Origin: Escherichia phage vB_VIPECOTPH05A
Reading direction: 5' to 3' (one strand)
Length of the DNA: 45,476 nt
Sequence record: PQ429079.1
In this document: positions 3,388-21,643 of the stretch, one piece after another
Numbering within the stretch: position 1 is the stretch's first letter
Layout: each line of letters starts with the position of its first letter
Notes under the pieces: generated by a model
Database searches by the model: none
Told to the model about the DNA's origin: nothing
Seen by the model: the letters and a program-made list of their open reading frames with translations, nothing else
Made by a program: the position numbers and the translations under genes

Positions 3388-3688
3388 TACCACCTCCGCG
3401 ACGTGCGATGTATTCTCCGGCGACAATGCCAGAGAGACGGGAATAAATCGGCATCCAGAGAATAGCAATGATGAACCCAAGGCCTGCTATTTCGCGTTCA
3501 CCTGCGATACCGAACCATTGAGCGGCAAGAGGTGCACCGAATACGGCGCACGCAAATCCAGTGGCGAGAAAACAGAGAGCATCGACAGGACCAGTAATAG
3601 TGGCTTTGTGTTGTCGTAAGCCTATTACCCCGCCAGCTAGTGAGGCAGCCAGAAGCCAGCCCGTCACTGTTTCAGTAAATTTATCCAA
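3380..3688 (-). CDS. holin-like membrane protein
   Basis: 102 aa with three hydrophobic helices (WLLAASLAGGVIGL, FLATGFACAVFGAPLAA, GLGFIIAILWMPIY); immediately upstream of endolysin. Confidence 0.55.
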   Translation of the reverse strand: MDKFTETVTGWLLAASLAGGVIGLRQHKATITGPVDALCFLATGFACAVFGAPLAAQWFGIAGEREIAGLGFIIAILWMPIYSRLSGIVAGEYIARRGGGNE

Positions 3689-3747
3689 GATGAATCCTCC
3701 AGGTGCGTATTAAGTATGCAGTAACTGGAGGATACCACGGGTAGGAA

Positions 3748-4188
3748 TTATCCTAATAGTTGTTTGGTAATAATCTTGCCGCCGGTGTTAGTGTCGAACT
3801 TCGAGGCAACTGCTACCCCACCATGCGCCGAATACCCACATTCCATCGCCGCCAGTGCATAAGGAGAACCGGAACCTACGGCGGCAAAGCTATCAGCAAT
3901 CGGAATAACCGAACTTAGCGCACAATCCCATGATTTATAGAACGCGACTTTATACACCTGTTCGGTGTCTTTCACGAACACCAGGGCTTCGAAATTGAAG
4001 TCGTAAGGCTGTGGTCGAAGAATACCCGGGCAATCGATAAGCATAGTGCCTGCCCCCGCATCACCAGCCACCCCGATAACAGCAAAATCATTCTCGTATA
4101 TCTTTGTGTCTGTGTTGTAGCAGTTACTCCCGCACACAACACGGGTGTCACAGGCCATTGTCTTTCCGTCAAACGCGATAGTAGTCAT
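3748..4188 (-). CDS. Ntn-hydrolase, proteasome beta/HslV-like peptidase
   Basis: N-terminus MTTIAFDG (Thr directly after Met, as in HslV TTIV) and AVGSGSPYALAAMECG resembling HslV GSGGxYALAAA. Confidence 0.5.
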   Translation of the reverse strand: MTTIAFDGKTMACDTRVVCGSNCYNTDTKIYENDFAVIGVAGDAGAGTMLIDCPGILRPQPYDFNFEALVFVKDTEQVYKVAFYKSWDCALSSVIPIADSFAAVGSGSPYALAAMECGYSAHGGVAVASKFDTNTGGKIITKQLLG

Positions 4189-8280: not shown

Positions 8281-8311
8281 TTGTTTCGTTAACTGATAAT
8301 GGGGTTTGAGA

Positions 8312-8482
8312 ATGACGCAGAATGAGGTAGCTGAGCGCATCGGGGTTACCCGTCGCACGCTGAATAACTGGTTAAAGAGTGGGAAGTTCCCGGATTGTTG
8401 TATTCGCATTATGGGCCGTCGTCAGCCAGGTACGTTTGACCCGGAGAAAGTGGAAGCGTGGATTAAGGAGAATGTAAAATGA
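8312..8482 (+). CDS. small HTH DNA-binding protein (56 aa)
   Basis: MTQNEVAERIGVTRRTLNNWLKSGKFP is a clear helix-turn-helix; below ORF-track cutoff; stop overlaps next start (ATGA). Confidence 0.55.
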   Translation: MTQNEVAERIGVTRRTLNNWLKSGKFPDCCIRIMGRRQPGTFDPEKVEAWIKENVK

Positions 8483-8712
8483 CCGAGTTTCAGTCCCGCG
8501 TATTTACGGCTGTAGTTTCGTTAACGCGTAAAAAAGGGTCGTGCAGCGTTATGGACTTGCGCCGTAGTTATTTTAAGTACTATAGTTCCGCCATTATTGA
8601 AGGGTCGTTGAAGGTACTGGTTAAATCGGGTGTCGTGAAAAACGTTGGTGGGAAATATAGTGCTGTTGCTGAAGTTCGCGGAATGGCTGCTACTTTAGAA
8701 GACCTGGAATAA
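8479..8712 (+). CDS. hypothetical protein with acidic C-terminal tail ...LEDLE
   Basis: 77-aa ORF; C-terminus ends LEDLE like the primase/helicase-like protein and the exonuclease. Confidence 0.5.
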   Translation: MTEFQSRVFTAVVSLTRKKGSCSVMDLRRSYFKYYSSAIIEGSLKVLVKSGVVKNVGGKYSAVAEVRGMAATLEDLE

Positions 8713-8770
8713 AAGAAAGCCCCGACGCGGTGAACGCCGAGGCCAAATTACTTGCTGAAGGAAATACAAC

Positions 8771-11038
8771 ATGTCCGATGTAATTTTATCCTACTCGTGG
8801 TCACGTCGCAACGCGCGGGCGGAGAAAAAGGATATAAACGTCAGAACCACACACACGGCAACACTGGACGACCTGAAAGAGCTAATCCAGCCGCTCTATG
8901 CCGTTCGTGACGGGATTAACCCTAAGACCGCACCGGGGTATATCACCGCCGCGTGCGATTTGACACACAGCACCGTAAAAGACCCGGAAACCGGCGACTT
9001 TAAGCAAGCGCGTAAAGGCTTTTTCTATCGCTGCGACGCGTCTGTAAGCAAATCGTCGCTGGCGTACCTGGACTTCGACAGCGCAACACCGGAAGAGTAT
9101 CAGGAAGCTGTGCGCCTGGTTAAGCGCAGCCGCCTGGCTATGTGCCTCTACACCACGGCATCCCATACCGATGAGTCACCACGCTTTCGCGTCGTCATGC
9201 CGCTGGGCCGCCCGGTTGAAGGCGGAGACATCATCCGTGTTCGCCATGGATTGCTGGAACACTTCTTCAAAGGCATGGGCGCGGACCGCAGCGGTTTCAC
9301 TCTGTCGCAGCCTATGTACCTGCCGCCGGTTGGCTCTACCGTTATCTGGTCGCGCCGAAACGACCTGATTGACCCGGAAGAGTTACTGGAAGGCATCCCG
9401 GATTACGAGGTGAGCAGCGCATCTGACTACCAGATACCAGAAGAACTGCGTACCGCGTTTACTGATGCGTTTGAGGCGCTGGCGTTTGAGTACGGCGGTG
9501 TTATGACGCCCCGCGGCCTTAAGATGCCAGCTACGCCGGAACATGCAGAAAATTACAGCGACCCTACGCCGCGCCCGGACGACTTCCTGCTGTGCTTCCC
9601 GCGCGAGGGCTACGAAGCGCCGAACGTAACCATGATCCACGACACTGACATTACGGCAACCGAAGGCATGTCGCCGAAAGAGGTGTGGAAATATGCGTGC
9701 GATGCGACCGGGCTTCCGTTCAGTGAAGTTGCAGAGGCAATCGGTTGGGGTACGCGTGGGTCAGTTTCATGCAGCCTGGACGACCTGGAAGACGATGAGG
9801 ACTCAGAGGAGGGCGAGCTACCGGAACCGGTAAAGGCTGATTTCGTCGTTGAAGGGTACATGCCGTCGGATTGTATCTGGGATATCGTCGGGGAATCTGG
9901 CACGTACAAATCGTTCTATACGCTGGGGATGATGTATCTCAGCGCCGCCGGATACCGGTTTGCGGGGGCGGATACCCAGCGTTGCCATCACTTCTATATT
10001 GATGGTGAGGGTGGCGCGGCCACACGTACGCGTATTGACGCGCTCGCGGCTAAATACGGTGCGGAAGGTAAAGATTACGTACACGTCATCGATATGGGTG
10101 AAGTCGGCAAACTGAAAAGCCTGATTAAGTTGATGCGTGAAACTGCGGGCGATGAACCTATCGGCATGGTCGCGTTCGACACCCTTAACCAGACCCTGGC
10201 CCTGACGATTGATAAGTTTGACGAGAACAGTTCATCAACGGCAATCGGTATGGGTAAAGTTATCGCCATCCTGAAAGAAGTGCGTGACGCAACTAAAGCC
10301 GCGGTGGGCGTCGTTCACCATACGCCGAAGGGGGGAAAGAAAGCCCGTGGTAGTGGCGCTCTGTATGCGGGGGTCGATGTGGAACTGACAATCGAACGCG
10401 CCACCGACCGACAGATAAACGTATATCACTCGAAATTCAAGCACGGGCCTCAGCAGAAGACGGTTGGCATGGTACTGGAGTCTGTACAGTTCCGCGAAGC
10501 ACCACCTCCGAAAGAGTACCGCGCGGTTGAGTTCGTCGGTAACACAGAGGAATACGGCGCAATCGTAAACCTGGACCTGCCTGAGCCGCACAAGGCGCTT
10601 GTGCTGATGCCGTGGGGCTTCGAGCCGTTCAAAACTGACGAGGAGAAAGAGCGGGAAGAAGGGCTGACAAAAGAAGGTAAAGAAAACGTACGTAAAACCG
10701 TAGAGAACGCAGTCAATAGTTCAGAAGCCACGATACTTGCCGCGTTTGAACTGGCGGAAGGAACCTACAACGGCAACGAAGGTATCACGGTAGCCGCAGC
10801 GAATAAGCTGGCACGGTCCGACCCTAACGCGAAGGCGTTTAACTCCAAAGAAGCCATAGAACGCGGGAAGATTAAGAAAATGGTTGAGGCGGGGTATCTT
10901 GTGCCAGGGACCGACGAAAACAATCAGATAATACCTGGCCGCTACAGGCTTAACACCAGGATAACGGATAACAAGATTCCGAAGACAATATACGAGCCGA
11001 ATGAGATGCTGGTGGTGACAGAGGAGGATTTGGAATAG
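8771..11038 (+). CDS. primase/helicase-like replication protein (RecA-like AAA ATPase domain)
   Basis: 755 aa; Walker A GESGTYKS, Walker B-like MVAFD, arginine-finger region; N-terminal primase-like region; ends EEDLE. Confidence 0.65.
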   Translation: MSDVILSYSWSRRNARAEKKDINVRTTHTATLDDLKELIQPLYAVRDGINPKTAPGYITAACDLTHSTVKDPETGDFKQARKGFFYRCDASVSKSSLAYLDFDSATPEEYQEAVRLVKRSRLAMCLYTTASHTDESPRFRVVMPLGRPVEGGDIIRVRHGLLEHFFKGMGADRSGFTLSQPMYLPPVGSTVIWSRRNDLIDPEELLEGIPDYEVSSASDYQIPEELRTAFTDAFEALAFEYGGVMTPRGLKMPATPEHAENYSDPTPRPDDFLLCFPREGYEAPNVTMIHDTDITATEGMSPKEVWKYACDATGLPFSEVAEAIGWGTRGSVSCSLDDLEDDEDSEEGELPEPVKADFVVEGYMPSDCIWDIVGESGTYKSFYTLGMMYLSAAGYRFAGADTQRCHHFYIDGEGGAATRTRIDALAAKYGAEGKDYVHVIDMGEVGKLKSLIKLMRETAGDEPIGMVAFDTLNQTLALTIDKFDENSSSTAIGMGKVIAILKEVRDATKAAVGVVHHTPKGGKKARGSGALYAGVDVELTIERATDRQINVYHSKFKHGPQQKTVGMVLESVQFREAPPPKEYRAVEFVGNTEEYGAIVNLDLPEPHKALVLMPWGFEPFKTDEEKEREEGLTKEGKENVRKTVENAVNSSEATILAAFELAEGTYNGNEGITVAAANKLARSDPNAKAFNSKEAIERGKIKKMVEAGYLVPGTDENNQIIPGRYRLNTRITDNKIPKTIYEPNEMLVVTEEDLE

Positions 11039-11041
11039 GTA

Positions 11042-11066
11042 AAAAGAAAGGGGCGTTAAGCCCCTT
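11042..11066 (-). terminator. hairpin terminator between convergent genes
   Basis: stem AAGGGGC/GCCCCTT; U-run on minus-strand side only. Confidence 0.4.
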
Positions 11067-11271
11067 CACCGAACGCCAGCCACTTGGCGTCTACTTCCAG
11101 CACTTCCGCCAGCTTGAACAGCGTCACCGGGCGGACGTCCTGAGTTACCCCGAGCGCAAGCTGGTTAATTGCGCCCTGGGAAACTCCAGTCAGGACAGCC
11201 AGACGGCGCTGGGAGATGCCAAGTTCTTTACGGCGTTGTTCTACGCGAATGCCTAGTTCAGATGGTTGCAT
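11056..11271 (-). CDS. XRE-family HTH transcriptional regulator (Cro/CI-like)
   Basis: 71 aa; RKELGISQRRLAVLTGVSQGAINQLALG is a typical XRE HTH; opposite strand inside the replication module. Confidence 0.7.
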   Translation of the reverse strand: MQPSELGIRVEQRRKELGISQRRLAVLTGVSQGAINQLALGVTQDVRPVTLFKLAEVLEVDAKWLAFGEGA

Positions 11272-11335
11272 GCCAGTTACTCCTTAGTTAGTTGATATGT
11301 GAATAGTACCATATTAATTATTTTAGAAAAGCCCA

Positions 11336-11364
11336 TTGACACATGAATAGTTCGCTATTATAGT
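11336..11364 (+). promoter_or_regulatory. sigma70 consensus-like promoter (TTGACA-N17-TATAGT)
   Basis: followed by conserved leader AACGAGAGGAGAGAAACGT-ATG at 11396. Confidence 0.6.
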
Positions 11365-11395
11365 TAGCCCATACCAAACGAGAGGAGAGAAACGT

Positions 11396-11653
11396 ATGCG
11401 GTTAATTGACTTGCTGCTTAAAGAACTACCTAAGTATGGTGGTTGGCCTGCAGGCGCTACGGAATGTATTCGGTTTGTAGATGAAGCGACGATTGACTTC
11501 TACGACTCTACCGGAAACTGGCCGTACGATTGTGCAGAGATATATGGCGAGATAGCATCCGGTCTGGTGTGCGAGCCGTCTAGACCGCTTGAAAGTGAAG
11601 TAGTTTACTACGAAGACTATAAAAATGTGCTAAATAAACAGGAGAACAAATAA
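11396..11653 (+). CDS. hypothetical protein
   Basis: 85-aa ORF with strong RBS. Confidence 0.5.
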   Translation: MRLIDLLLKELPKYGGWPAGATECIRFVDEATIDFYDSTGNWPYDCAEIYGEIASGLVCEPSRPLESEVVYYEDYKNVLNKQENK

Positions 11654-12123
11654 TGTTAGAACAATTCTTAAAATTACTGGAACGTTTCGTAGTCGCACAT
11701 GAACAGATTGCTGCGAACAGCGAGAAACAGGTTGTCGTTGCTGAAACTGCAACAATCGCGCCTACTGTTGCAAAAGAAGCAACAAAAGAAATCCCGGTCG
11801 AAGGTGAAGACATCGTTGACACTAAACCAGCAGAAGAAGAGAAGCCGAAACGCAAGCCGCGTAAAGCTAAAGTAGAGGAACCGACAACAGAGCTGGAAGA
11901 AGAGAAGGAAGAGGTAGACTACCAGTCTCTGCGTGACCAGATTCGGGCTATCGACGATGCGATTAACGAAGGCCCGAGCGATGCCGCGTGCGACGATTCT
12001 GATGAACTTCTGGAAGAGTTCACCGGTAAGAAGATGAAGATTGCCGCGATTAAAGACGAAGACCTGGCTGAATACCTGGAACGCCTGACAGCAATCAAGA
12101 ACAAGTATTTCGAAGAAGAATAA
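11653..12123 (+). CDS. hypothetical acidic protein
   Basis: 156 aa, Glu/Lys-rich (EEEKPKRKPRKAKVEE...). Confidence 0.5.
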   Translation: MLEQFLKLLERFVVAHEQIAANSEKQVVVAETATIAPTVAKEATKEIPVEGEDIVDTKPAEEEKPKRKPRKAKVEEPTTELEEEKEEVDYQSLRDQIRAIDDAINEGPSDAACDDSDELLEEFTGKKMKIAAIKDEDLAEYLERLTAIKNKYFEEE

Positions 12124-12166
12124 TTACCCAGCGGCCTTCGGGCCGCTTTAACTGAGGGTCGGAATT

Positions 12167-12502
12167 ATGAACTACGAGAATTTAACAGACATAGAAATTA
12201 ATGCACGTGTCAGCCGCGCGCTATACGGTGATGTTTCGCGAGGGCATCAGATGGAATTGGCTTCTGGAATAGTAGACTATTGTAACCGTATAGATGACGC
12301 ATGGCCTATCATCACCGGTAACAACATCTCGATTGTAGCTACAGATTTAGAATGGATTGCTTTACCGGATAATGCGGTTATCGACGGTATTACCGGAGAC
12401 GCAACCAGTATGATTTACGTAGATGACTCATGTGTTATTGGTAAAAACCCTCTACGCGCCGCTATGATTGTCTTCTTGAGAACGCATGAGGTGGATAAAT
12501 GA
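12167..12502 (+). CDS. hypothetical protein
   Basis: 111-aa ORF. Confidence 0.45.
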   Translation: MNYENLTDIEINARVSRALYGDVSRGHQMELASGIVDYCNRIDDAWPIITGNNISIVATDLEWIALPDNAVIDGITGDATSMIYVDDSCVIGKNPLRAAMIVFLRTHEVDK

Positions 12503-12771
12503 TTTACCAACTCTACCGCGCCGTCGACAGGCGGGACAACACAGATGCACTATGGCTGTTGCGTGCGCCGTCAGGAGCGCACCAGATGGAAGAGATGGCG
12601 TACTTAGGCAAAGTACCGCGGCCTAAAGATATAGGCCGTCACGTGTCGCAGATTAAGCGCACGACTTTCGCCAAACCTGACTTTTATGTCTTCGAGTCGA
12701 TGTACGGGTGGGCCATGCATTGCCATCACCAGACACGACATTTAATTGACCAGTGGGGGAGCAGGGTATGA
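12499..12771 (+). CDS. hypothetical protein
   Basis: 90-aa ORF, ATGA-coupled to neighbours. Confidence 0.45.
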   Translation: MIYQLYRAVDRRDNTDALWLLRAPSGAHQMEEMAYLGKVPRPKDIGRHVSQIKRTTFAKPDFYVFESMYGWAMHCHHQTRHLIDQWGSRV

Positions 12772-13115
12772 CGGATAAATGGTGGCTTAATTTGCGCAGC
12801 GGTGACAAGGTTTACACCGTCGGTGACCGCAGAAAGAACAGCGGCGTAGCTACTGTGTTACAAAACGGCAAAAAGTACATCCACATTGCGCATGAAGCCC
12901 GGGCGCTCCGCGTGAATAAATCTTCTGGTAGGCTTGAGGATTACCTGAAAACATTAATATACAAAAGTGAAAAGCATCACATGGCCGCTGTTGACGCAAG
13001 ACGTCAGTTCGCAGGAATGTTGCAACAGTTAAGCGACTTACATCGCGATGATTCTTTCACCCCCTCAGAAGAACAGCTACAGGCATTAAACTTGTATTTG
13101 GAGAGTTTACGATGA
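12768..13115 (+). CDS. hypothetical protein
   Basis: ORF 12753..13115; likely ATG at 12768 overlapping previous stop. Confidence 0.45.
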   Translation: MTDKWWLNLRSGDKVYTVGDRRKNSGVATVLQNGKKYIHIAHEARALRVNKSSGRLEDYLKTLIYKSEKHHMAAVDARRQFAGMLQQLSDLHRDDSFTPSEEQLQALNLYLESLR

Positions 13116-14353
13116 TTCTAAAAGAACGCGGCGGCAATAACGATGTTCACGCCTTACTTTCGCCGTCAGGTGCTAAAAAATGGCTGTCATGCGCTGCATC
13201 ACTGGCCTGTGAAAAAGATATTCCTAACACGTCGGGTAAATCCGCCGTTACGGGGACAGCGTGCCACACCATAGCTGAAGTCCATCTCAACGCCTATATC
13301 CGCGGCACTGCGTTGCCGTTAGAGCGTGAAGTTGGCGCTTACGTGCCGGATGAGGGTAAAGGCCAGATTAAGGCGCTAATCAGCCCGATGAAAGGCGCGG
13401 TACTGATTACGGCGGACATGATTGAGCAGGTGCGCAAGTACACCGACTACTGCAAAGCGATTATAGACGTAGCGACTTATGCCAAGCTCGAGATGCGGGT
13501 AAATCTTACTGAGGTGTTGCATCCTGGTTACGAAGGCGTTGAGACGTTCGGAACCGCTGACCTTGTTGCCGTTCAGGAACTGGCAAACACTGGCGAGCAT
13601 ATGCTCCTTATCGGCGACCTTAAAACAGGACGGCATCGTGTTGAAGCGAAAGAAAACAAGCAGCTTATGCTCTACGCTCTCGGTGTTTATCGCCGACTCA
13701 AGAGACGTTATAACATCACCGCGGTTCGTCTGGCCATCTTTCAGCCATACGCTGGCGGCGCGTCGGAGTGGGACATCTCGGTTGAAGGTCTGGAACTGTT
13801 CGCTAAGTTTGCGCAGAAACGGGCGCTGTTAGCTCTTGATGCGTATTTCCGTGGTAAAAAGAACCTGAAAGCGTCGGACTTCAGGCCGTCTGTCGACGGT
13901 TGCCAATGGTGCCGTTTCTCAGAGCAGTGCGCCGCGCGTACAAAAACCGTCAACGCGGTGCTGGCGGAAGAACTGGAGGACGACTTTGCGCTGGAACTGA
14001 CGCCGGAGCAACTCGTCGCTGAGTATGAGAAGCTGCCGCTGTTGCGCCAGCACATCGATAAGGTTGAGAAAGCTATGGCTGCTGCGTTGCATTCCGGTAA
14101 GAAAGTTCCTGGGTACAAGCTGGTTGAAGGTAAGATGGGCAATCGTGCGTGGAAAGACGCGGAGAAAGTAACAGAACTCTACGGCGACAAGCTGACTAAA
14201 GAAGTGCTCATGACGCCAACCGAAGCTGTTAAAGTGATACCGGAAGAAGAACTGAAAGACTTCATCACACGTAAGCCAGGTGCCCCATGCATCACAACGG
14301 CAGACGACAAACGGCCTGAGTGGAATCAGGTTAGTGAAGAAGATTTGGAATAA
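13112..14353 (+). CDS. PD-(D/E)XK exonuclease, Cas4/RecB-like (DUF2800-type)
   Basis: N-terminal HALLSPSGAKKWLSCAASL, GDLKTG, C-terminal cysteine cluster CQWCRFSEQC; ends EEDLE. Confidence 0.6.
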   Translation: MILKERGGNNDVHALLSPSGAKKWLSCAASLACEKDIPNTSGKSAVTGTACHTIAEVHLNAYIRGTALPLEREVGAYVPDEGKGQIKALISPMKGAVLITADMIEQVRKYTDYCKAIIDVATYAKLEMRVNLTEVLHPGYEGVETFGTADLVAVQELANTGEHMLLIGDLKTGRHRVEAKENKQLMLYALGVYRRLKRRYNITAVRLAIFQPYAGGASEWDISVEGLELFAKFAQKRALLALDAYFRGKKNLKASDFRPSVDGCQWCRFSEQCAARTKTVNAVLAEELEDDFALELTPEQLVAEYEKLPLLRQHIDKVEKAMAAALHSGKKVPGYKLVEGKMGNRAWKDAEKVTELYGDKLTKEVLMTPTEAVKVIPEEELKDFITRKPGAPCITTADDKRPEWNQVSEEDLE

Positions 14354-14357
14354 AGTG

Positions 14358-14386
14358 TTGACACCTGAATAGTTAGCTATTATAGT
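14358..14386 (+). promoter_or_regulatory. sigma70 consensus-like promoter (TTGACA-N17-TATAGT)
   Basis: near-identical to the promoter at 11336. Confidence 0.6.
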
Positions 14387-14441
14387 TCTAATCACTGGCC
14401 GGGCAGCTCCCGGAGTAAACTGAAAACTGAGGAATCGAGAA

Positions 14442-15068
14442 ATGGGGCTGAAATTAAATCTGCGTAAAGTAAACACTGCCTGGGTTAACGTATTCGAACG
14501 CGAAAAAGACCGTGAAAATGATGATGGTTCAATCACTAAAGGTCAGTACAGTGCGACTATTATCCTGCCGTCCGACCACGCGCAAATCGACGCGCTCTAC
14601 GACACCGTTTACGCTGTAGTTGAAGAAGCGTTAGGTGCAGCCGCCGCTGAGAAGTGGATGAAGTCTAACTACGGCGAAGGTAAGCACATGGATAAATGTG
14701 CGATTAAAGACATTGCTGAGCGTGACAATCCGTTTGAAGACTTCCCGGAAGGCTTCTACTTCAAAGCGAAGGCACAGAAACAGCCGCTGATTGTTACCTC
14801 TAAAAAAGGTGAGACTCAGGTAGAGCAGGACTTCAATGTAGACGGCGAACAGATTGAAGGTGAACAAGTTTACAGCGGCTGCGTCGCTAACGTAAGCGTC
14901 GAAATCTGGTTCAGCCAGAAATACAAAGTCCTCGGCGTTAACCTGCTGGCTATTAAATACGTAGGCGAAGGTAAAGCGTTCGGCGGTTCTAAAGTCGCCG
15001 CAAGCGTCAATGACCTGGAAGATGACGAAGAAGATGAAGCACCGCGCCGCGAACGTCGCCGCCGCTAA
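14442..15068 (+). CDS. ssDNA-binding protein (DUF2815/T7 gp2.5-like, acidic C-terminus)
   Basis: 208 aa; C-terminal NDLEDDEEDE tail; sits between exonuclease and polymerase. Confidence 0.55.
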   Translation: MGLKLNLRKVNTAWVNVFEREKDRENDDGSITKGQYSATIILPSDHAQIDALYDTVYAVVEEALGAAAAEKWMKSNYGEGKHMDKCAIKDIAERDNPFEDFPEGFYFKAKAQKQPLIVTSKKGETQVEQDFNVDGEQIEGEQVYSGCVANVSVEIWFSQKYKVLGVNLLAIKYVGEGKAFGGSKVAASVNDLEDDEEDEAPRRERRRR

Positions 15069-15087
15069 TATCTGAATGAATTTAACT

Positions 15088-15110
15088 AAGGCCCTTCATT
15101 GGGCCTTTTT
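15088..15110 (+). terminator. rho-independent terminator
   Basis: stem AAGGCCC/GGGCCTT followed by TTTTT. Confidence 0.6.
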
Positions 15111-15122
15111 ACCGGAGTCAGA

Positions 15123-15596
15123 ATGGAACATATAAAAGATTTTCTTAGCTATAACCGAGAAACCGGAATATTCACATGGATACAACCTACATACAGACGA
15201 GGGAAACCTGGAGACATCGCAGGATGCATCAATAGTAGTGGATACTGGCGAATACCTTATATGGGTAGATATTACATGGCCCACAGGCTCGCTTGGTTTT
15301 TCGAGTACGGTGAATGGCCCGAGGGTCCTCTTGACCACATAAACCGTGACAGGTTAGACAATAGGATTTCTAACCTAAGGAAAGCAACCACCGCAGATAA
15401 TGTGCGAAACGCTAAAAATAAGGGGGCTAGAACGGGAGTTAAGGGAGTAGTTAAAACCGGCAACCGATTTTATGGGCGGGTACATTTTAACTACAAAAGT
15501 TATAATGCGGGTAGCTACGGAACTCTTGAAGAAGCAGAAAGCGCTGTAAAGAAATTAAGAGAAAAATTGCATAAGGAATTTTATTGCCATGGCTAG
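15123..15596 (+). CDS. HNH homing endonuclease with AP2 domain
   Basis: ORF 15099..15596; likely ATG at 15123; HNH motif LDHINRDRLDNRISNLR, AP2-like C-terminus; stop overlaps polymerase start. Confidence 0.75.
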   Translation: MEHIKDFLSYNRETGIFTWIQPTYRRGKPGDIAGCINSSGYWRIPYMGRYYMAHRLAWFFEYGEWPEGPLDHINRDRLDNRISNLRKATTADNVRNAKNKGARTGVKGVVKTGNRFYGRVHFNYKSYNAGSYGTLEEAESAVKKLREKLHKEFYCHG

Positions 15597-17787
15597 TTTA
15601 TTATACCTGGATACCGAGACATTCTCCGAAGCGGACTTAAAGAAAGTCGGGTCGTATGCGTATGCGGAGCACCCAACGACAGAGGTTATAATTTGTACAT
15701 ATGCCGTTGATGATGGCCCTGTAGAAATATGGGATTGCACTTCCGAACCTGTAATGCCGATAAGCCTCTGTGTGGCTCTCCGTAATGTTATGCGTGGGCG
15801 TATGAAAATCGTGGGCCATAACTTTTTAATGTTCGACAGGCTCGTCATGAAACACTGCTGGGGCTTTGATATTCCGGTAAGCAACACCATTGATACGATG
15901 ATTTGGGCGTTTCGTCACGCGCTGCCGGGTTCACTTGATGCCTTGTGCGAAGTGTTGGGCGTATCAGCAGACAATGCGAAAGATAAACGCGGCAAGGCGC
16001 TGATTCAGCGTTTCTCTAAACCGACGCCGAAGAACTACAAAATCCGCCGTTACACTGCCGAAACGCACCCGGACGAGTGGGCGCTGTTTATCAAATACGC
16101 CGTGAGCGACATCACTGCGATGCGTGAGGTCTTCCATAAGCTGCCGCGTTGGGGTAACTCAGAGTTCGAAGACCGTGTACTGGAACTGGACCAGTTAATC
16201 AACGACCGCGGGTTTAAGGTCGACGTTGCGCTGGCAGAAGCCGCGATTGAAGCCGTGGAGAAACACAAAGCGCAGTTACAAGAAGAAACCCAACGTAAAT
16301 ACGGTGGCTCTCTTACCGGTAAAGACTTTCTGCCGATTCTGCGTGAACTGGCGCCTGCGCATCGCATCCACAACGCGCAGAAGTCTACGCTTAACGACCT
16401 GCTGGCGGACGATGATTTACCGGACGACGCCCGCGCGATTATCGAAATGCGCCTTGGAGCCGCGTCGACAGCGTCTACGAAATATAACCCGCTGCTGCTG
16501 GGACGCTCGTCGGACGACCGCCGTCGTGGTTGCTTGCAGTACGGCGGGGCGAAACGCACTCTGCGATGGGCGGGTAAAGGCTTCCAGCCGCAGAACCTGG
16601 CACGCGGGTATTATCACGATGATGAGCTGGATAAAGGCATTTCTGCGTTACTTAAGGGTCGCGCTCATCGCCGTTTTGACGTAGCCAAACTAACGGCATC
16701 GACGGTTCGTAGCTGCATCATACCGGAAGCTGGGCACAAGTTTGTCGTCGCCGATTACTCTAACGTTGAAGGCCGTGGGCTTGCGTGGCTGGCGGGAGAA
16801 GAAACTGCGCTGGATACGTTCCGTGCAGGGCTGGATATTTACTGCGTAACCGCAGGTAAGATGTTCGGCATGGACCCCGACGATATTAAGAAAAACTTCA
16901 AGGAAATCAGACAGATAGGCAAGGCTTGCGAGCTTGGCCTCGGCTATGAGGGCGGAGTCGGAGCGTTCGTTACGTTCGCCAAAAACTTAGGTCTTGACCT
17001 TATTGAGATGGCAAAAACAATGGATGGTACATTCCCTGACCACATCTGGTCAGCCACCGCGAGAGGATATGAATGGGCGCGCATCCAGGAAGCCAAGCGA
17101 CCCCCGCATCCAGGTGAAAAGGACGACAGACCATCATATATTCTGGACAAGAAAGTGTGGCGCACATGCGACGCAATCAAACGTATGTGGCGTGAGTCAC
17201 ACCCTGAAACAGTAGCGTTCTGGCGTGACCTTAAAGACGGAATTTTAGCCGCTGTTCGTAATCCTGGTCGTGAATTTTGGGCGGGGGCGCACTTGCGCAG
17301 GAATGGGGAAAGGGCCATCCGCGTATGGCGTACGGTAGAATTTGATTCGTCGGGCAGGAAGGTTCCCGGTTGGTGGCTTTGTATGGAGTTGCCGTCAGGC
17401 CGTATCCTCTCGTATCCGGGAATCGGCGTTAGCGTGACAAAGGAAACCGACGAAGACGGACGGGTAAATACGAATGTGCGAATCAAGTATCAGGGCGAAA
17501 ACCAGTTAACCCGTCAGTGGACTACCCTGCACACACACGGCGGCAAAGCCTGTGAAAACCTGGTCCAAGCGCTGTGCCGTGATTTACTTGCGTATGCGAT
17601 GATTAACGTTGAGCGCGGTGGGTACCCTATCGTACTTTCGGTACATGATGAACTGGTATGTGAAACTCCAGATACGCCCGATTACACGGTACCTGATCTG
17701 GAAAAATTAATGTGTGCGTTGCCAGAGTGGGCGGAGGGGTTCCCTCTTGTAGCGGAAGGTAGCGAAATGTACAGATATGCTAAATGA
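15589..17787 (+). CDS. DNA polymerase, family A (T7-like) with 3'-5' exonuclease domain
   Basis: Exo motif YLDTETFS; pol motif A DYSNVEGR, motif B KACELGLGYEGG, motif C VHDELV. Confidence 0.85.
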   Translation: MASLLYLDTETFSEADLKKVGSYAYAEHPTTEVIICTYAVDDGPVEIWDCTSEPVMPISLCVALRNVMRGRMKIVGHNFLMFDRLVMKHCWGFDIPVSNTIDTMIWAFRHALPGSLDALCEVLGVSADNAKDKRGKALIQRFSKPTPKNYKIRRYTAETHPDEWALFIKYAVSDITAMREVFHKLPRWGNSEFEDRVLELDQLINDRGFKVDVALAEAAIEAVEKHKAQLQEETQRKYGGSLTGKDFLPILRELAPAHRIHNAQKSTLNDLLADDDLPDDARAIIEMRLGAASTASTKYNPLLLGRSSDDRRRGCLQYGGAKRTLRWAGKGFQPQNLARGYYHDDELDKGISALLKGRAHRRFDVAKLTASTVRSCIIPEAGHKFVVADYSNVEGRGLAWLAGEETALDTFRAGLDIYCVTAGKMFGMDPDDIKKNFKEIRQIGKACELGLGYEGGVGAFVTFAKNLGLDLIEMAKTMDGTFPDHIWSATARGYEWARIQEAKRPPHPGEKDDRPSYILDKKVWRTCDAIKRMWRESHPETVAFWRDLKDGILAAVRNPGREFWAGAHLRRNGERAIRVWRTVEFDSSGRKVPGWWLCMELPSGRILSYPGIGVSVTKETDEDGRVNTNVRIKYQGENQLTRQWTTLHTHGGKACENLVQALCRDLLAYAMINVERGGYPIVLSVHDELVCETPDTPDYTVPDLEKLMCALPEWAEGFPLVAEGSEMYRYAK

Positions 17788-18980: not shown

Positions 18981-19175
18981 ATGAAACACGAATATGACCG
19001 CAAGCCAGCACGTGACATCGTACCTGGCGACATGATTTTCAACGTTAAGACCCGCCAGCCTGTTGCCGTTGATACTGTGTTCGTCGAGTCAAACGGTAAA
19101 CTGGTTATCGAAGATGTAACAGGCAACGTTACTGCGTTCGGGCGTAAAGAGCTGGTACTCTACGTTAAGGATTGA
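18981..19175 (+). CDS. hypothetical protein
   Basis: 64-aa ORF with RBS AAGGAATTGAG. Confidence 0.45.
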   Translation: MKHEYDRKPARDIVPGDMIFNVKTRQPVAVDTVFVESNGKLVIEDVTGNVTAFGRKELVLYVKD

Positions 19176-21643
19176 ACATGTCTAAATTTATCCGTCGAGG
19201 GTACCAGAAGCTCATGACTTCGTTCATGCTGCAACACCCGCGCTGTAATATCTGGGCCAGTATGGGTAGCGGCAAGTGCCTGAAACGCGGGACTGAAGTT
19301 ATTATGTTTGACGGTACGACCAAGAAAGTAGAAGACGTCATCGTCGGTGACGTGCTTATGGGGCCGGATTCGACGCCTAGAAATGTACTGTCTCTCGGTA
19401 GAGGCCGGGAGATGATGTACGAGGTTAAACCGCGAAAAGGAGAGTCGTATACGGTCAACGAAAGCCATATATTATCCCTGCGAACTACTACAGGGATCGC
19501 AAAAGGTTCATGGCCAGATAATACCGTTTTCGACATAAGCGTCCGCGACTGGCTTAAGTTGCCGAAATATGTAACCGGACCTAATGGGTATCTTAAGGGT
19601 TGGCGGGTACCTGTCGATTTTACAAGGAAAGAGCAGGACGAGGCTTTATTGCCTCCGTACCTTATGGGGTTATGGCTGGGTGACGGTACTTCGTCGTCGG
19701 GGGCCATAACATCAGGAGAGAACGAAAAGGAAATAAGGGCTTATCTTGAGTCGTACGCAGCACGTAATGGGATGCAAATACGAAAAGAAGGACTTACATG
19801 GAGTATATCTTACGGCAACACAGGTCATAAGAAGCACGGGTTTACGCACGCGCTGAAATCGGCGGGTGTCCTGAACAATAAGCATATACCGCATAGTTAC
19901 AAATGCGGCGACCGGCGACAGCGGTTAGAATTGCTGGCGGGGCTTCTGGATAGTGATGGTTACTGCGATTTGTCTAAAGCGGGTTTTGACTGGATTTCGG
20001 TAAGCGAGCGACTTGCTGATGATTTTTGTTATCTATGCCGTTCTCTTGGTTTTGCTGCTTACAAGAAGAAAACTCGTAAGCGTTGCGCAAACACTGATGT
20101 TTGGGGTGACTACTTCCGTGTGTCGGTATCTGGCGATTTTTCTGAGGTACCTTTCGTGCGAGGACGCCACCAGAATTTACCGAAGCGTAATATTAATAAG
20201 AACGTGCTTAACGTTGGGATAGAATCCATAACCCCGGTCGGCGTAGATGATTATTTTGGCTTCACTATCGACGGTGACAGTAGGTTTTTATTGGGGGACT
20301 TCACTGTCACGCACAATACAAGCTCAACGTTGTGGGTTCTCAACCGCCTGTTCCGTAATGGGCAACTTAATGACGACGACCGCGTGTTAATCCTCGCCCC
20401 GTTGCGTGTTGCGTCTGGCACGTGGCCTGCGGAACAGGCACGTTGGGGTTTCCCGTGCCTGCGTGTCGTAGATGCAACTGGTTCAGAGAAGCGCCGCATC
20501 GCGGCGCTGGAGTCGGACGCTAACGTGGTGTGCACTAACTACGAAGTTATCGAATGGCTTATTGACTACTACGGCAAAGACGACTGGCCTTTTACAGTTA
20601 TTGTCGCCGATGAAAGCACGAAGCTGAAATCGTTTCGCAGCCGTTCAGGTGGTAGCAAGCGTGCAAAGGCGCTCAGCAAAGTGGCGTTTGGTAAGGTTAA
20701 GCGTTTTATCAACCTGACCGGTACGCCGTCACCAAACGGCCTCAAAGACTTGTGGGGGCAGAACTGGTTTATAGACGCAGGCGAGCGACTTGGTTCTTCG
20801 TACACGGCATTCACTGACCGCTGGTTTAACTCGGTGCAGAAAGGGAAGTCCGCGATGGCGCGCGAGTATCACGCACGACCGGGTGCAGATAATGAAATTC
20901 ATCAGAAGATGAAGGATATCAGTCTCACTATCGATGCCGCAGAGTGGTTCGGTTGCGAAGCGCCGATTATCGTTCCTGTTGAAATAGACCTGCCGAAGAA
21001 AGCGCGTCAGGCGTACATCGATATGGAGGAGAAGTTATTTGCGGAACTCGAGAGCGGAGAAGTCGAAGCGGCTAATGCCGCGGCGAAGACGTCGAAGTGT
21101 TTGCAGATTGCATCCGGTGCCGTATATGTGTCAGGGCCAGATGGCGAAGCAACAAAAGACTGGGAGAAAGTGCACGACACGAAACTGGATGCGCTCGAGT
21201 CGATTGTTGAGGAGTTACAGGGTGCGCCGTTACTGGTAGCCTATCAGTTTAAGCACGAACTGGAGCGTATCCTTAAGCGATTCCCGCAAGCGCAGGCGTT
21301 TGCCAAAGGCGCTAAGGGTAATAAGCAGATGGAAGCGTGGAACCGTGGGGGAATCGAAATCTTATGCGTTCACCCCGCGTCAGCGGGCCATGGTTTGAAT
21401 TTACAGGACGGTGGACATCATCTGGTATTCATATCGCAAGGCTGGAACCTTGAGCACTATTTGCAGGTTGTCGAGCGCATAGGCCCCGTACGCCAGAAAC
21501 AGGCGGGGCATGAGCGCCCGGTGTTCCTTTATCACATCGTTGCTAAAGACACGCTGGATGAGGTTGTTGCCGCGCGTACAGACGAGAAGAAATCGGTCCA
21601 GGAAGAGTTGCTTAATTACATGAAGAGACGAGGTAAGAAATGA
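19172..21643 (+). CDS. SNF2-family helicase, intein-containing
   Basis: extein has Walker A GSGK|T (split by intein), DEST box VADESTKL, LTGTPSPNGLKDLW, HPASAGHGLNLQ, Q..G...R. Confidence 0.75.
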   Translation: MNMSKFIRRGYQKLMTSFMLQHPRCNIWASMGSGKCLKRGTEVIMFDGTTKKVEDVIVGDVLMGPDSTPRNVLSLGRGREMMYEVKPRKGESYTVNESHILSLRTTTGIAKGSWPDNTVFDISVRDWLKLPKYVTGPNGYLKGWRVPVDFTRKEQDEALLPPYLMGLWLGDGTSSSGAITSGENEKEIRAYLESYAARNGMQIRKEGLTWSISYGNTGHKKHGFTHALKSAGVLNNKHIPHSYKCGDRRQRLELLAGLLDSDGYCDLSKAGFDWISVSERLADDFCYLCRSLGFAAYKKKTRKRCANTDVWGDYFRVSVSGDFSEVPFVRGRHQNLPKRNINKNVLNVGIESITPVGVDDYFGFTIDGDSRFLLGDFTVTHNTSSTLWVLNRLFRNGQLNDDDRVLILAPLRVASGTWPAEQARWGFPCLRVVDATGSEKRRIAALESDANVVCTNYEVIEWLIDYYGKDDWPFTVIVADESTKLKSFRSRSGGSKRAKALSKVAFGKVKRFINLTGTPSPNGLKDLWGQNWFIDAGERLGSSYTAFTDRWFNSVQKGKSAMAREYHARPGADNEIHQKMKDISLTIDAAEWFGCEAPIIVPVEIDLPKKARQAYIDMEEKLFAELESGEVEAANAAAKTSKCLQIASGAVYVSGPDGEATKDWEKVHDTKLDALESIVEELQGAPLLVAYQFKHELERILKRFPQAQAFAKGAKGNKQMEAWNRGGIEILCVHPASAGHGLNLQDGGHHLVFISQGWNLEHYLQVVERIGPVRQKQAGHERPVFLYHIVAKDTLDEVVAARTDEKKSVQEELLNYMKRRGKK
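19277..20317 (+). mobile_element. intein with LAGLIDADG homing endonuclease domain (347 aa)
   Basis: begins Cys (CLKRGTEVIMFDG) right after GSGK, ends ...THN followed by Thr; two LAGLIDADG-like blocks LMGLWLGDGT and LLAGLLDSDGY. Confidence 0.75.

Follow-up and report, generated by a model that had tools for sequence, protein, structure and literature searches.

Genes of the replication region and five copies of an Asp-Leu motif

The window described here, a stretch of 45.5 kb from Escherichia phage vB_VIPECOTPH05A (PQ429079.1), belongs to a Kagunavirus-like E. coli siphophage of the subfamily Guernseyvirinae. Four of its proteins carry a short acidic motif built around an Asp-Leu pair, which is probably a shared docking motif. 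The region 8300-15100 that encodes these proteins shows 90-95% identity to many Escherichia "Kagunavirus" phages and 80-90% identity to Salmonella Jerseyvirus phages. On the basis of Pfam and PHROGs the plus strand encodes a winged-helix protein of 77 amino acids with a disordered C-terminal tail (p77, 8479-8712), a primase-helicase with an AAA_25 helicase domain (8771-11038, Pfam and PHROG 3228), a DUF2800 or Cas4-like PD-(D/E)XK exonuclease (13112-14353, Pfam DUF2800 with E=1.6e-67 plus PDDEXK_1) and a gp2.5-like single-stranded DNA-binding (SSB) and annealing protein (14442-15068, Pfam Enc34_ssDNA-bd and PHROG 112). They are followed by a family A DNA polymerase (PolA, 15589-17787, plus strand, Pfam and PHROGs), which lacks the motif and is a candidate receptor. 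The combination of duf2800, gp2.5 and polA has already been recognised as a unit (PMC8093625).

In a Pfam scan p77 matched no family and only PHROG 5169 covers it; its orthologues are confined to Kaguna- and Jerseyvirus. Residues 1-62 of the AlphaFold 2 (AF2) model have a predicted local distance difference test (pLDDT) value above 90 and form three helices and a beta hairpin, and residues 67-77 fall below 50. The best Foldseek matches of this model were the MotA N-terminal domain, the LexA DNA-binding domain, IclR and the RPA32 winged helix (RPA32C), and p77 is accordingly modelled as a winged-helix domain with a disordered tail. The exonuclease retains the conserved residues D150, D169 and K171 of the DUF2800 and Cas4-like PD-(D/E)XK nucleases and is predicted to be a nuclease; its cysteines C27, C264, C267 and C273 (C...CX2CX5C) are invariant or nearly so. 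Just after the CX2CX5C cluster, at residues ~283-293 (13937-13996, plus strand), lies a conserved internal DFxDL element of DUF2800, EELEDDFALEL in the window, which resembles the tail motif. For the orthologue of Bas14, a Dhillonvirus, the catalytic residues are required to trigger a retron, and C-terminal disorder in a DUF2800 nuclease from a Dhillonvirus has been noted before (bioRxiv 10.64898/2026.07.14.737667). The SSB protein belongs to Pfam PF10991 Enc34_ssDNA-bd (E=6.6e-16, 58.9 bits at a cut-off of 26) and matches the solved structures PDB 4JG2 and 5ODJ; its tail, residues 177-208, has a pLDDT below 50. A search of the PDB found neither a structure of a DUF2800 protein nor one close to the polymerase.

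The initial annotation had pointed out that p77 ends in LEDLE and that the primase-helicase and the exonuclease both end in EEDLE. These ends are located at 8695-8709 (ATLEDLE), 11021-11035 (VTEEDLE) and 14336-14350 (VSEEDLE), all on the plus strand. The sequence NDLEDDEEDE, which it had placed near the C-terminus of the SSB protein, was likewise found at 15009-15038 (plus strand), where it starts the tail just past the OB core (AFGG). A fifth copy, SLDDLEDDEDSEE (SLDDLEDDE), had been overlooked; it lies in the primase-helicase at 9773-9811 (plus strand), in the linker that joins the N-terminal part to the AAA_25 domain. The motif is carried by both the SSB protein and the helicase-primase of this phage, and two of the five copies, in the linker and in the SSB protein, are internal. 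All motif tails examined are acidic in composition. The SSB element is the same Asp-Leu motif and more than an acidic patch. It sits 17 residues before the C-terminus and is followed by a clade-specific basic extension, APRRERRRR (15039-15065, plus strand). Such a basic end after an acidic motif is unusual, as SSB tails normally end acidic, and the extension might interact with acidic motifs. The SSB proteins of Dhillon- and Cornellvirus (loci L001 and L002) even show alternating acidic and basic blocks, …DDEDED-KPRKRRKPR-DDEDEDDDDED-KAPRKRRRR.

Among the 535 six-frame open reading frames of at least 40 amino acids, only p77, the primase-helicase and the exonuclease end in this way, and all four occurrences of [ED]DLE in the whole six-frame translation fall inside the genes described here. 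A C-terminal EDLE would be expected 0.0013 times among 75 genes, and the probability that some tetrapeptide is common to at least three of 75 C-termini is ~5e-5. The similarity of the tails is therefore real and not a product of chance. Moreover, the tails are encoded by TTA GAA GAC CTG GAA TAA in p77, GAG GAG GAT TTG GAA TAG in the primase-helicase and GAA GAA GAT TTG GAA TAA in the exonuclease. Since the codons differ synonymously between the copies (CTG/TTG, GAC/GAT, TAA/TAG), the tails are not a DNA repeat and their similarity is kept at the protein level. The genes downstream of the tails begin 59-89 nucleotides away or sit on the opposite strand. An origin at the DNA level, be it a repeat, the Shine-Dalgarno sequence of the next gene or a regulatory site, was discarded on these grounds.

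Conservation of the motif in orthologues and across the DUF2800 family

As the similarity search with the exonuclease listed only relatives of at least 94% identity, divergence was gauged on clusters at 50% identity. The clade comparison comprised 30 loci from Kaguna-, Jersey-, Cornell- and Dhillonvirus relatives. The Asp-Leu pair was invariant in 121/121 instances (11 p77 tails, 27 primase-helicase tails, 27 linkers, 29 exonuclease tails and 27 SSB motifs), and the flanks were variable. Alignment of orthologue C-termini, which had been proposed as a check of the shared tail, revealed tails that are kept down to ~45% protein identity, and the lack of conservation that would have refuted a docking peptide was not seen. 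In the Jerseyvirus SE2 the motif reads PEDLE at the end of p77, as in the Jerseyvirus p77 orthologues generally, EGDLE in the primase-helicase, EDDLEA in the exonuclease and SVDDLEDDE in the SSB protein. The Cornellvirus Shemara, which has no p77 entry, carries NDLED and a terminal EDDLEN in the primase-helicase, a terminal ATDSDLED in the exonuclease and ATDSDLDDD in the SSB protein. In the Dhillonvirus EK99P-1 (45% exonuclease identity, again no p77 entry) the corresponding sequences are DDDLKD, DEDLSNE and DEDLGDD. Besides EGDLE, EDDLEN and DDDLKD, primase-helicase orthologues end in DEDLE or DDDLAD. In the linker, 27/27 clade orthologues keep the pattern C-x-x-[DEA]-D-L, with CSLDDLEDD, CDEEDLDDE, CQDEDLMDE and CTDADLDNE as its versions across clades. 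In the SSB protein an Asp-Leu element after the FGG core was present in all relatives listed (at least 120), and in an alignment of 46 sequences D191 and L192 were the sole invariant columns of the tail.

For the wider family we surveyed the C-termini of 150 DUF2800 representatives from clusters at no more than 50% identity. In most of them a short acidic-hydrophobic tail follows the conserved SDKRPA end of the domain. The close clade has tails of the form [ST][DE][DE]DL, and most others read DDFEDL, DEFEDLT or DFDDV, frequently ending in [DE]xL[IV]. By a loose count, 66% of 145 representatives have an acid-hydrophobic-acid element in their last 20 amino acids, compared with 15.5% of internal control segments. 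Among the loci with both genes the element occurs in the exonuclease in 56/61 and in both exonuclease and SSB protein in 50/61. In the alignment of SSB tails …AFGGSKVAASVNDLEDDEEDE of the window corresponds to …AFAGGGVASEDDFEDLSADEE of distant SSB proteins. Because of this correspondence, the DLE of the window can be equated with the DFE of other lineages, with Leu replacing Phe.

Co-variation of the tails within genomes

Using an 11-sequence alignment, we retrieved 80 IMG/VR loci around DUF2800 genes. In these loci the exonuclease and the adjacent gp2.5-like SSB protein of the same genome have nearly identical ends, which differ by lineage. In locus L063, the exonuclease ends in NDFDDVEAAESLI and the SSB protein in DDFDDVSEGADAESLI, with DDFDDV…AESLI in both. 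The pair of L074, DDFSDVTATDCDLA and DDFDDVTSGATADDLA, shares a terminal DLA; that of L031, FENVDAVEAAAEFI and EDFDSIEEGTDAGEFV, ends in EFI and EFV; and that of L082, EFDSVTPVGDADFV and DEFETVTAGADAADFA, in ADFV and ADFA. Similarly, the exonuclease end ATDSDLED of Shemara matches ATDSDLDD of its SSB protein, and in a Staphylococcus Triavirus an exonuclease ending in AEDDFDKL is paired with AEDDFDEL in the SSB protein.

We compared 24 distinct pairs with shuffled genome assignments. The end-anchored score was 4.67, against 0.10±1.24 for the shuffled assignments of these related genomes (p=2e-4), and the observed identity of the last four residues was reached in 0/20,000 shuffles. Paired tails of distant phages also differ in their codons, for example GAA TCC CTC ATT TGA and GAA TCG CTG ATC TAA. 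Within the clade of the window, itself a set of relatives, the flanking positions of the four copies on the long proteins resemble each other more in the same genome than across genomes (p=2e-4). Such co-variation between the tails of different proteins is what a single shared partner would be expected to leave.

Spread of the motif to unrelated proteins

Tail sharing extends beyond the exonuclease and the SSB protein in several lineages. In phage Enc34 (L084) the primase ends in DPFDDEDEV, ORF3 (124 amino acids, 3681-4055, no Pfam family) in EEEEV, the DUF2800 exonuclease in AYDDEDEDDDEV (…GAYDDEDEDDDEV) and the SSB protein in DAYDEDEDEWDEDEV (…SDAYDEDEDEWDEDEV), so that all four terminate in [D/E]EV; the Enc34 polymerase has no such tail. 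The paper on the Enc34 protein describes the SSB tail alone, without mention of sharing (PMC5686142). Tail sharing of this kind may flag unannotated replication factors such as Enc34 ORF3. The SNF2 helicase of Enc34 (ORF9, 8856-10334) ends in VIWDDEED.

Upstream of its Prim-Pol/D5_N primase, L041 encodes an HTH_3/HTH_31 protein of 94 amino acids with SEDDFEDLTQEENAE at the C-terminus, and the SSB protein of the same genome carries SEDDFEDLSA. The Prim-Pol/VapE primase of L082 ends in GFADFV, like its exonuclease. A 424-amino-acid DUF7666 protein of L031 (7772-9046, plus strand), encoded upstream of the exonuclease, ends in GQFEEIEE and resembles the motif EDFDSIEEG of the SSB protein of that genome. 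The motif hence appears independently on unrelated carriers, namely the OB-fold SSB protein, the PD-(D/E)XK nuclease, AAA_25, Prim-Pol/D5_N, Prim-Pol/VapE, winged helix-turn-helix and HTH_3 proteins. It has thus been acquired by no fewer than three unrelated types of primase and by small DNA-binding proteins of two kinds.

A further candidate in the window is p156 (11653-12123, plus strand; PHROG 3127, no Pfam family), an acidic, Lys-rich protein of low complexity with the aromatic-acidic end KYFEEE. Its orthologues end in KYYEIEE (Shemara) and TYFELED (EK99P-1), and p156 may be another tail-bearing member of the module. The sequence DEDL within p156 was dropped as a motif copy, since it is probably helical and has Val in orthologues.

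A probable docking motif and its candidate receptor

The core of the motif is short, within the 3-10 residues usual for a short linear motif, lies in regions predicted to be disordered and is conserved amid diverging flanks. These properties, together with its convergent acquisition and the co-variation within genomes, suggest a short linear motif with one co-evolving partner. We consider a docking motif with one common receptor, whichever protein this is, to be the probable explanation of the tails, with a probability of about 70%. The motif [S/T]-x-[D/E]-[D/E]-D-L-[E/x] would then be a short linear docking motif in disordered segments and this lineage's version of the gp2.5-like SSB tail, with Leu here and Phe (DDFEDL) in most other lineages. 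Copies of the SSB tail on the exonuclease, on the primase-helicase (twice) and on the small winged-helix protein would bind the same receptor surface as the SSB tail itself, and their carriers would thereby be recruited to, or exchanged at, one replication and recombination machine. The initial annotation had suggested that the tails may be a common replisome-docking peptide, by analogy with the tails of T7 helicase and gp2.5 that dock on the polymerase. Orthologue conservation and co-variation support the idea of a shared functional docking motif well and this interpretation as a whole in part, with the polymerase as a candidate partner.

If the motif serves docking, the groove of the SSB protein that binds single-stranded DNA (ssDNA) is the leading candidate for the receptor, with a little less than an even chance. 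The family A polymerase, as in T7, follows as a serious contender, and another phage or host protein is the least probable of the three. The SSB groove is slightly favoured because it explains the choice of carriers, which are ssDNA-generating enzymes and site-binding proteins. Proteins that make ssDNA or mark a site would bring the SSB protein or annealase with them, and nascent ssDNA would displace the tail. In the crystal of the Enc34 SSB protein, the traceable tail enters the ssDNA groove of an adjacent molecule with its end, and two other DUF2815 structures as well as T7 gp2.5 are reported to show similar contacts (PMC5686142). As the final 11 residues cannot be seen in this crystal, the tail is traceable up to GRVDTSDAYD, the equivalent of the motif. 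By analogy, these crystal data (PMC5686142) and the Enc34 tails point to the SSB groove at least as strongly as to the polymerase. The absence of PolA was rejected as a means of discriminating between receptors, since nearly all of the related loci that are not truncated contain a PolA homologue.

A more specific proposal, which we put forward only tentatively, is that the tails, as copies of the SSB tail, make up an address code that evolves quickly and differs by lineage, and that they fit into the ssDNA groove of gp2.5-like SSB protein or annealase in its free state. The helicase-primase, the resecting exonuclease and the winged-helix or HTH site-binder would arrive preloaded with SSB protein and hand it to nascent ssDNA.

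Several observations weigh against a docking motif with a common receptor. The contacts in the Enc34 crystal are possibly packing artefacts, and the AF2 monomer of the SSB protein, which leaves the tail unplaced at a pLDDT of about 30, gives no sign of docking on its own OB fold. Truncations of the Bas14 exonuclease orthologue are viable (bioRxiv 10.64898/2026.07.14.737667), so its tail is not essential in the laboratory. Some DUF2800 proteins have no tail at all (L054, L073). The genomes in the permutation tests are related, and the p-values of 2e-4 therefore overstate the number of independent events; the distant set amounts to ~8 distinct tail classes and the clade of the window to ~5 lineages. 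Moreover, Xylella phage Sano shows no clear tail sharing, and a global, crude scan for more tail-sharing proteins at distant loci was not enriched over a background of shuffled genomes, with the HTH protein of L041, the primase of L082 and the DUF7666 protein of L031 as individual standouts. Given the scan and the unclear pattern in Sano, the spread beyond exonuclease and SSB protein depends on the lineage.

Alternative explanations

Docking of the tails on the family A polymerase, which would tether the helicase-primase, the SSB protein and the exonuclease, is a sub-case of the docking motif that differs in its receptor. It has the precedent of T7 (PMC5997990, PMC4124056, PMC5686142). In the window, in Enc34, in the Staphylococcus phage and in the IMG/VR loci, the polymerase alone among the large replication proteins is free of the motif; it accompanies the module in nearly all loci of full length, and it belongs to the recognised duf2800-gp2.5-polA unit (PMC8093625). 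On the other hand, no basic patch or thioredoxin-binding-like loop was identified in the polymerase of the window, which is distant from solved Pol I structures and gave no match to T7 gp5. The C-terminal Phe, essential in T7, is also missing from the motif, and the use of recruiting a polymerase is less obvious for an exonuclease or a small winged-helix protein. Taken as a whole, this version is rather unlikely. A further view holds that each tail is an acidic DNA mimic that acts in cis on the DNA-binding site of its own protein, with no shared receptor. gp2.5, gp32 and E. coli SSB are known to have auto-inhibitory acidic tails of this kind, and every carrier of the motif binds DNA. Removal of the Enc34 SSB tail alters DNA specificity (PMC5686142), and the acidic tails of T7 gp2.5 compete with ssDNA (cited in PMC5686142). 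Auto-inhibition leaves unexplained why one residue-level motif recurs on folds as unrelated as OB, PD-(D/E)XK, AAA_25, winged helix-turn-helix and Prim-Pol, and why the tails of one genome vary together as far as their final 3-4 residues, and we regard it as improbable.

About as improbable is a reader from the host, such as an SSB-interacting protein, a chaperone or a protease that acts on the motif as a degron. Distant versions of the motif (DFDD…L[IV] at the C-terminus) resemble the tip DFDDDIPF of bacterial SSB, and T7 too uses a host factor, thioredoxin. Phages of similar hosts have diverged rapidly and by lineage in this motif, which fits better with a co-evolving partner encoded by the phage, and the motif of the window ends in Glu instead of a hydrophobic residue with a free carboxylate; for a C-terminal degron, it is also at odds that two of the five copies are internal. 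Finally, the tails might be functionless and reflect an acidic composition of low complexity, chance or a recent conversion between the ends of the genes. Acidic tails are indeed common among phage replication proteins. Against this stand the chance probability of ~5e-5, the invariant Leu in an acidic context over 121 instances, the synonymous codon differences, which exclude recent DNA copying, and the conservation of the motif at ~45% protein identity, which together make a lack of function very improbable.

Neighbouring features

GC-rich hairpins with T-runs directly follow p77 (8718-8744) and the primase-helicase (11046-11067). Two near-consensus sigma-70 promoters (TTGACA-17-TATAGT) lie at 11336-11364 and 14358-14386 on the plus strand, one of them in the gap between exonuclease and SSB gene. 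As promoters and T-run hairpins adjoin them, the tail-bearing genes stand at transcription-unit boundaries. Between the SSB and polymerase genes, a gene for an HNH_3 homing-type endonuclease (15099-15596, plus strand) overlaps the polymerase start. In the Jerseyvirus SE2 the polymerase is annotated as two coding sequences (794 and 200 amino acids), and this split suggests mobile-element activity around pol in this group. Further downstream, an SNF2-type helicase of 823 amino acids (19172-21643, plus strand) harbours an intein that includes a LAGLIDADG homing endonuclease (Pfam Hint 36-110, LAGLIDADG_3 250-307). The intein interrupts the P-loop, starting with C after ASMGSGK and ending with THN before TSST, and residues 393-823 show 67% identity to the intein-less helicase of Shemara.

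Comparison with known systems and implications

The nearest known counterpart is the pair of tails on T7 gp4 and gp2.5. The tail of T7 gp4 binds two basic patches of the gp5 polymerase (PMC5997990), and the tail of gp2.5 binds polymerase and helicase and is needed for the stimulation of the gp6 exonuclease (PMC4124056). Both tails compete for one set of basic patches on the polymerase, and that of gp2.5 additionally binds in the DNA cleft of its own protein (PMC5997990, PMC4124056, PMC5686142). The window resembles T7 in that acidic, disordered C-terminal peptides occur on the SSB protein and the helicase-primase and that the SSB protein is of the gp2.5 fold family. However, the T7 tails share just acidity and a terminal DF (EADEDGDF in gp2.5, WSNDTDF in gp4), whereas the motif of the window is an invariant Asp-Leu and its tails end in DLE without a terminal aromatic residue of the T7 type. 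Moreover, the window has five copies on four proteins, including an exonuclease, a winged-helix protein and one internal linker, whereas the T7 gp6 exonuclease is without such a tail, and the SSB motif of the window is followed by a basic extension.

Enc34 offers a second parallel. Its ORF6 (DUF2815) is a homologous SSB protein; the tail is acidic, contains an aromatic residue (SDAYD) and occupies the ssDNA groove of a neighbour in the crystal (PMC5686142), and tails are common to its primase, ORF3, exonuclease and SSB protein. The sequences differ, with AYDEDE…DEV in Enc34 and EEDLE in the window. The tip of bacterial SSB (DFDDDIPF) is the short acidic-hydrophobic end of a disordered tail that recruits many genome-maintenance proteins. 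There the partners bind the tip, whereas in the phage the partners would carry a copy of it; besides, none of the five copies has a Pro-Phe end or conforms to D-D-D-[IL]-P-F. In two-component recombinases such as lambda Exo/Beta, RecE/RecT and T7 gp6/gp2.5, an exonuclease and its cognate annealing protein interact specifically. In the phage the pairing would work through mimicry of the SSB tail by the exonuclease, which is undescribed for those systems. In the literature on DUF2800, Enc34 and tail mimicry we found no earlier account of shared, co-varying tails.

Acidic tails as connectors of the replisome are textbook knowledge for T7 only. Our finding suggests that the principle is general for the very widespread module of DUF2800, gp2.5-like SSB protein and PolA in phages of Proteobacteria, Firmicutes, Bacteroidota and Actinobacteria, and that it reaches to the recombination exonuclease and small DNA-binding proteins, with a tag that co-evolves as a lineage-specific code. 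The motif yields concrete peptides of 5-8 residues, such as VVTEEDLE, ATLEDLE, SLDDLEDDE and ASVNDLEDDEEDE, and sharing of the SSB tail is a handle for unannotated replication factors such as p77 and Enc34 ORF3. It also offers a route to understanding the coupling of exonuclease and annealase in this recombination system. As gp2.5-like SSB proteins and the DUF2800 nuclease were recently reported as triggers of retron defence, their interaction surfaces are of current interest. If the tails do act as an address code, its divergence (EEDLE, DDFEDL…ESLI, AYDEDE…DEV) would insulate the replication and recombination machinery of related phages from each other during co-infection.

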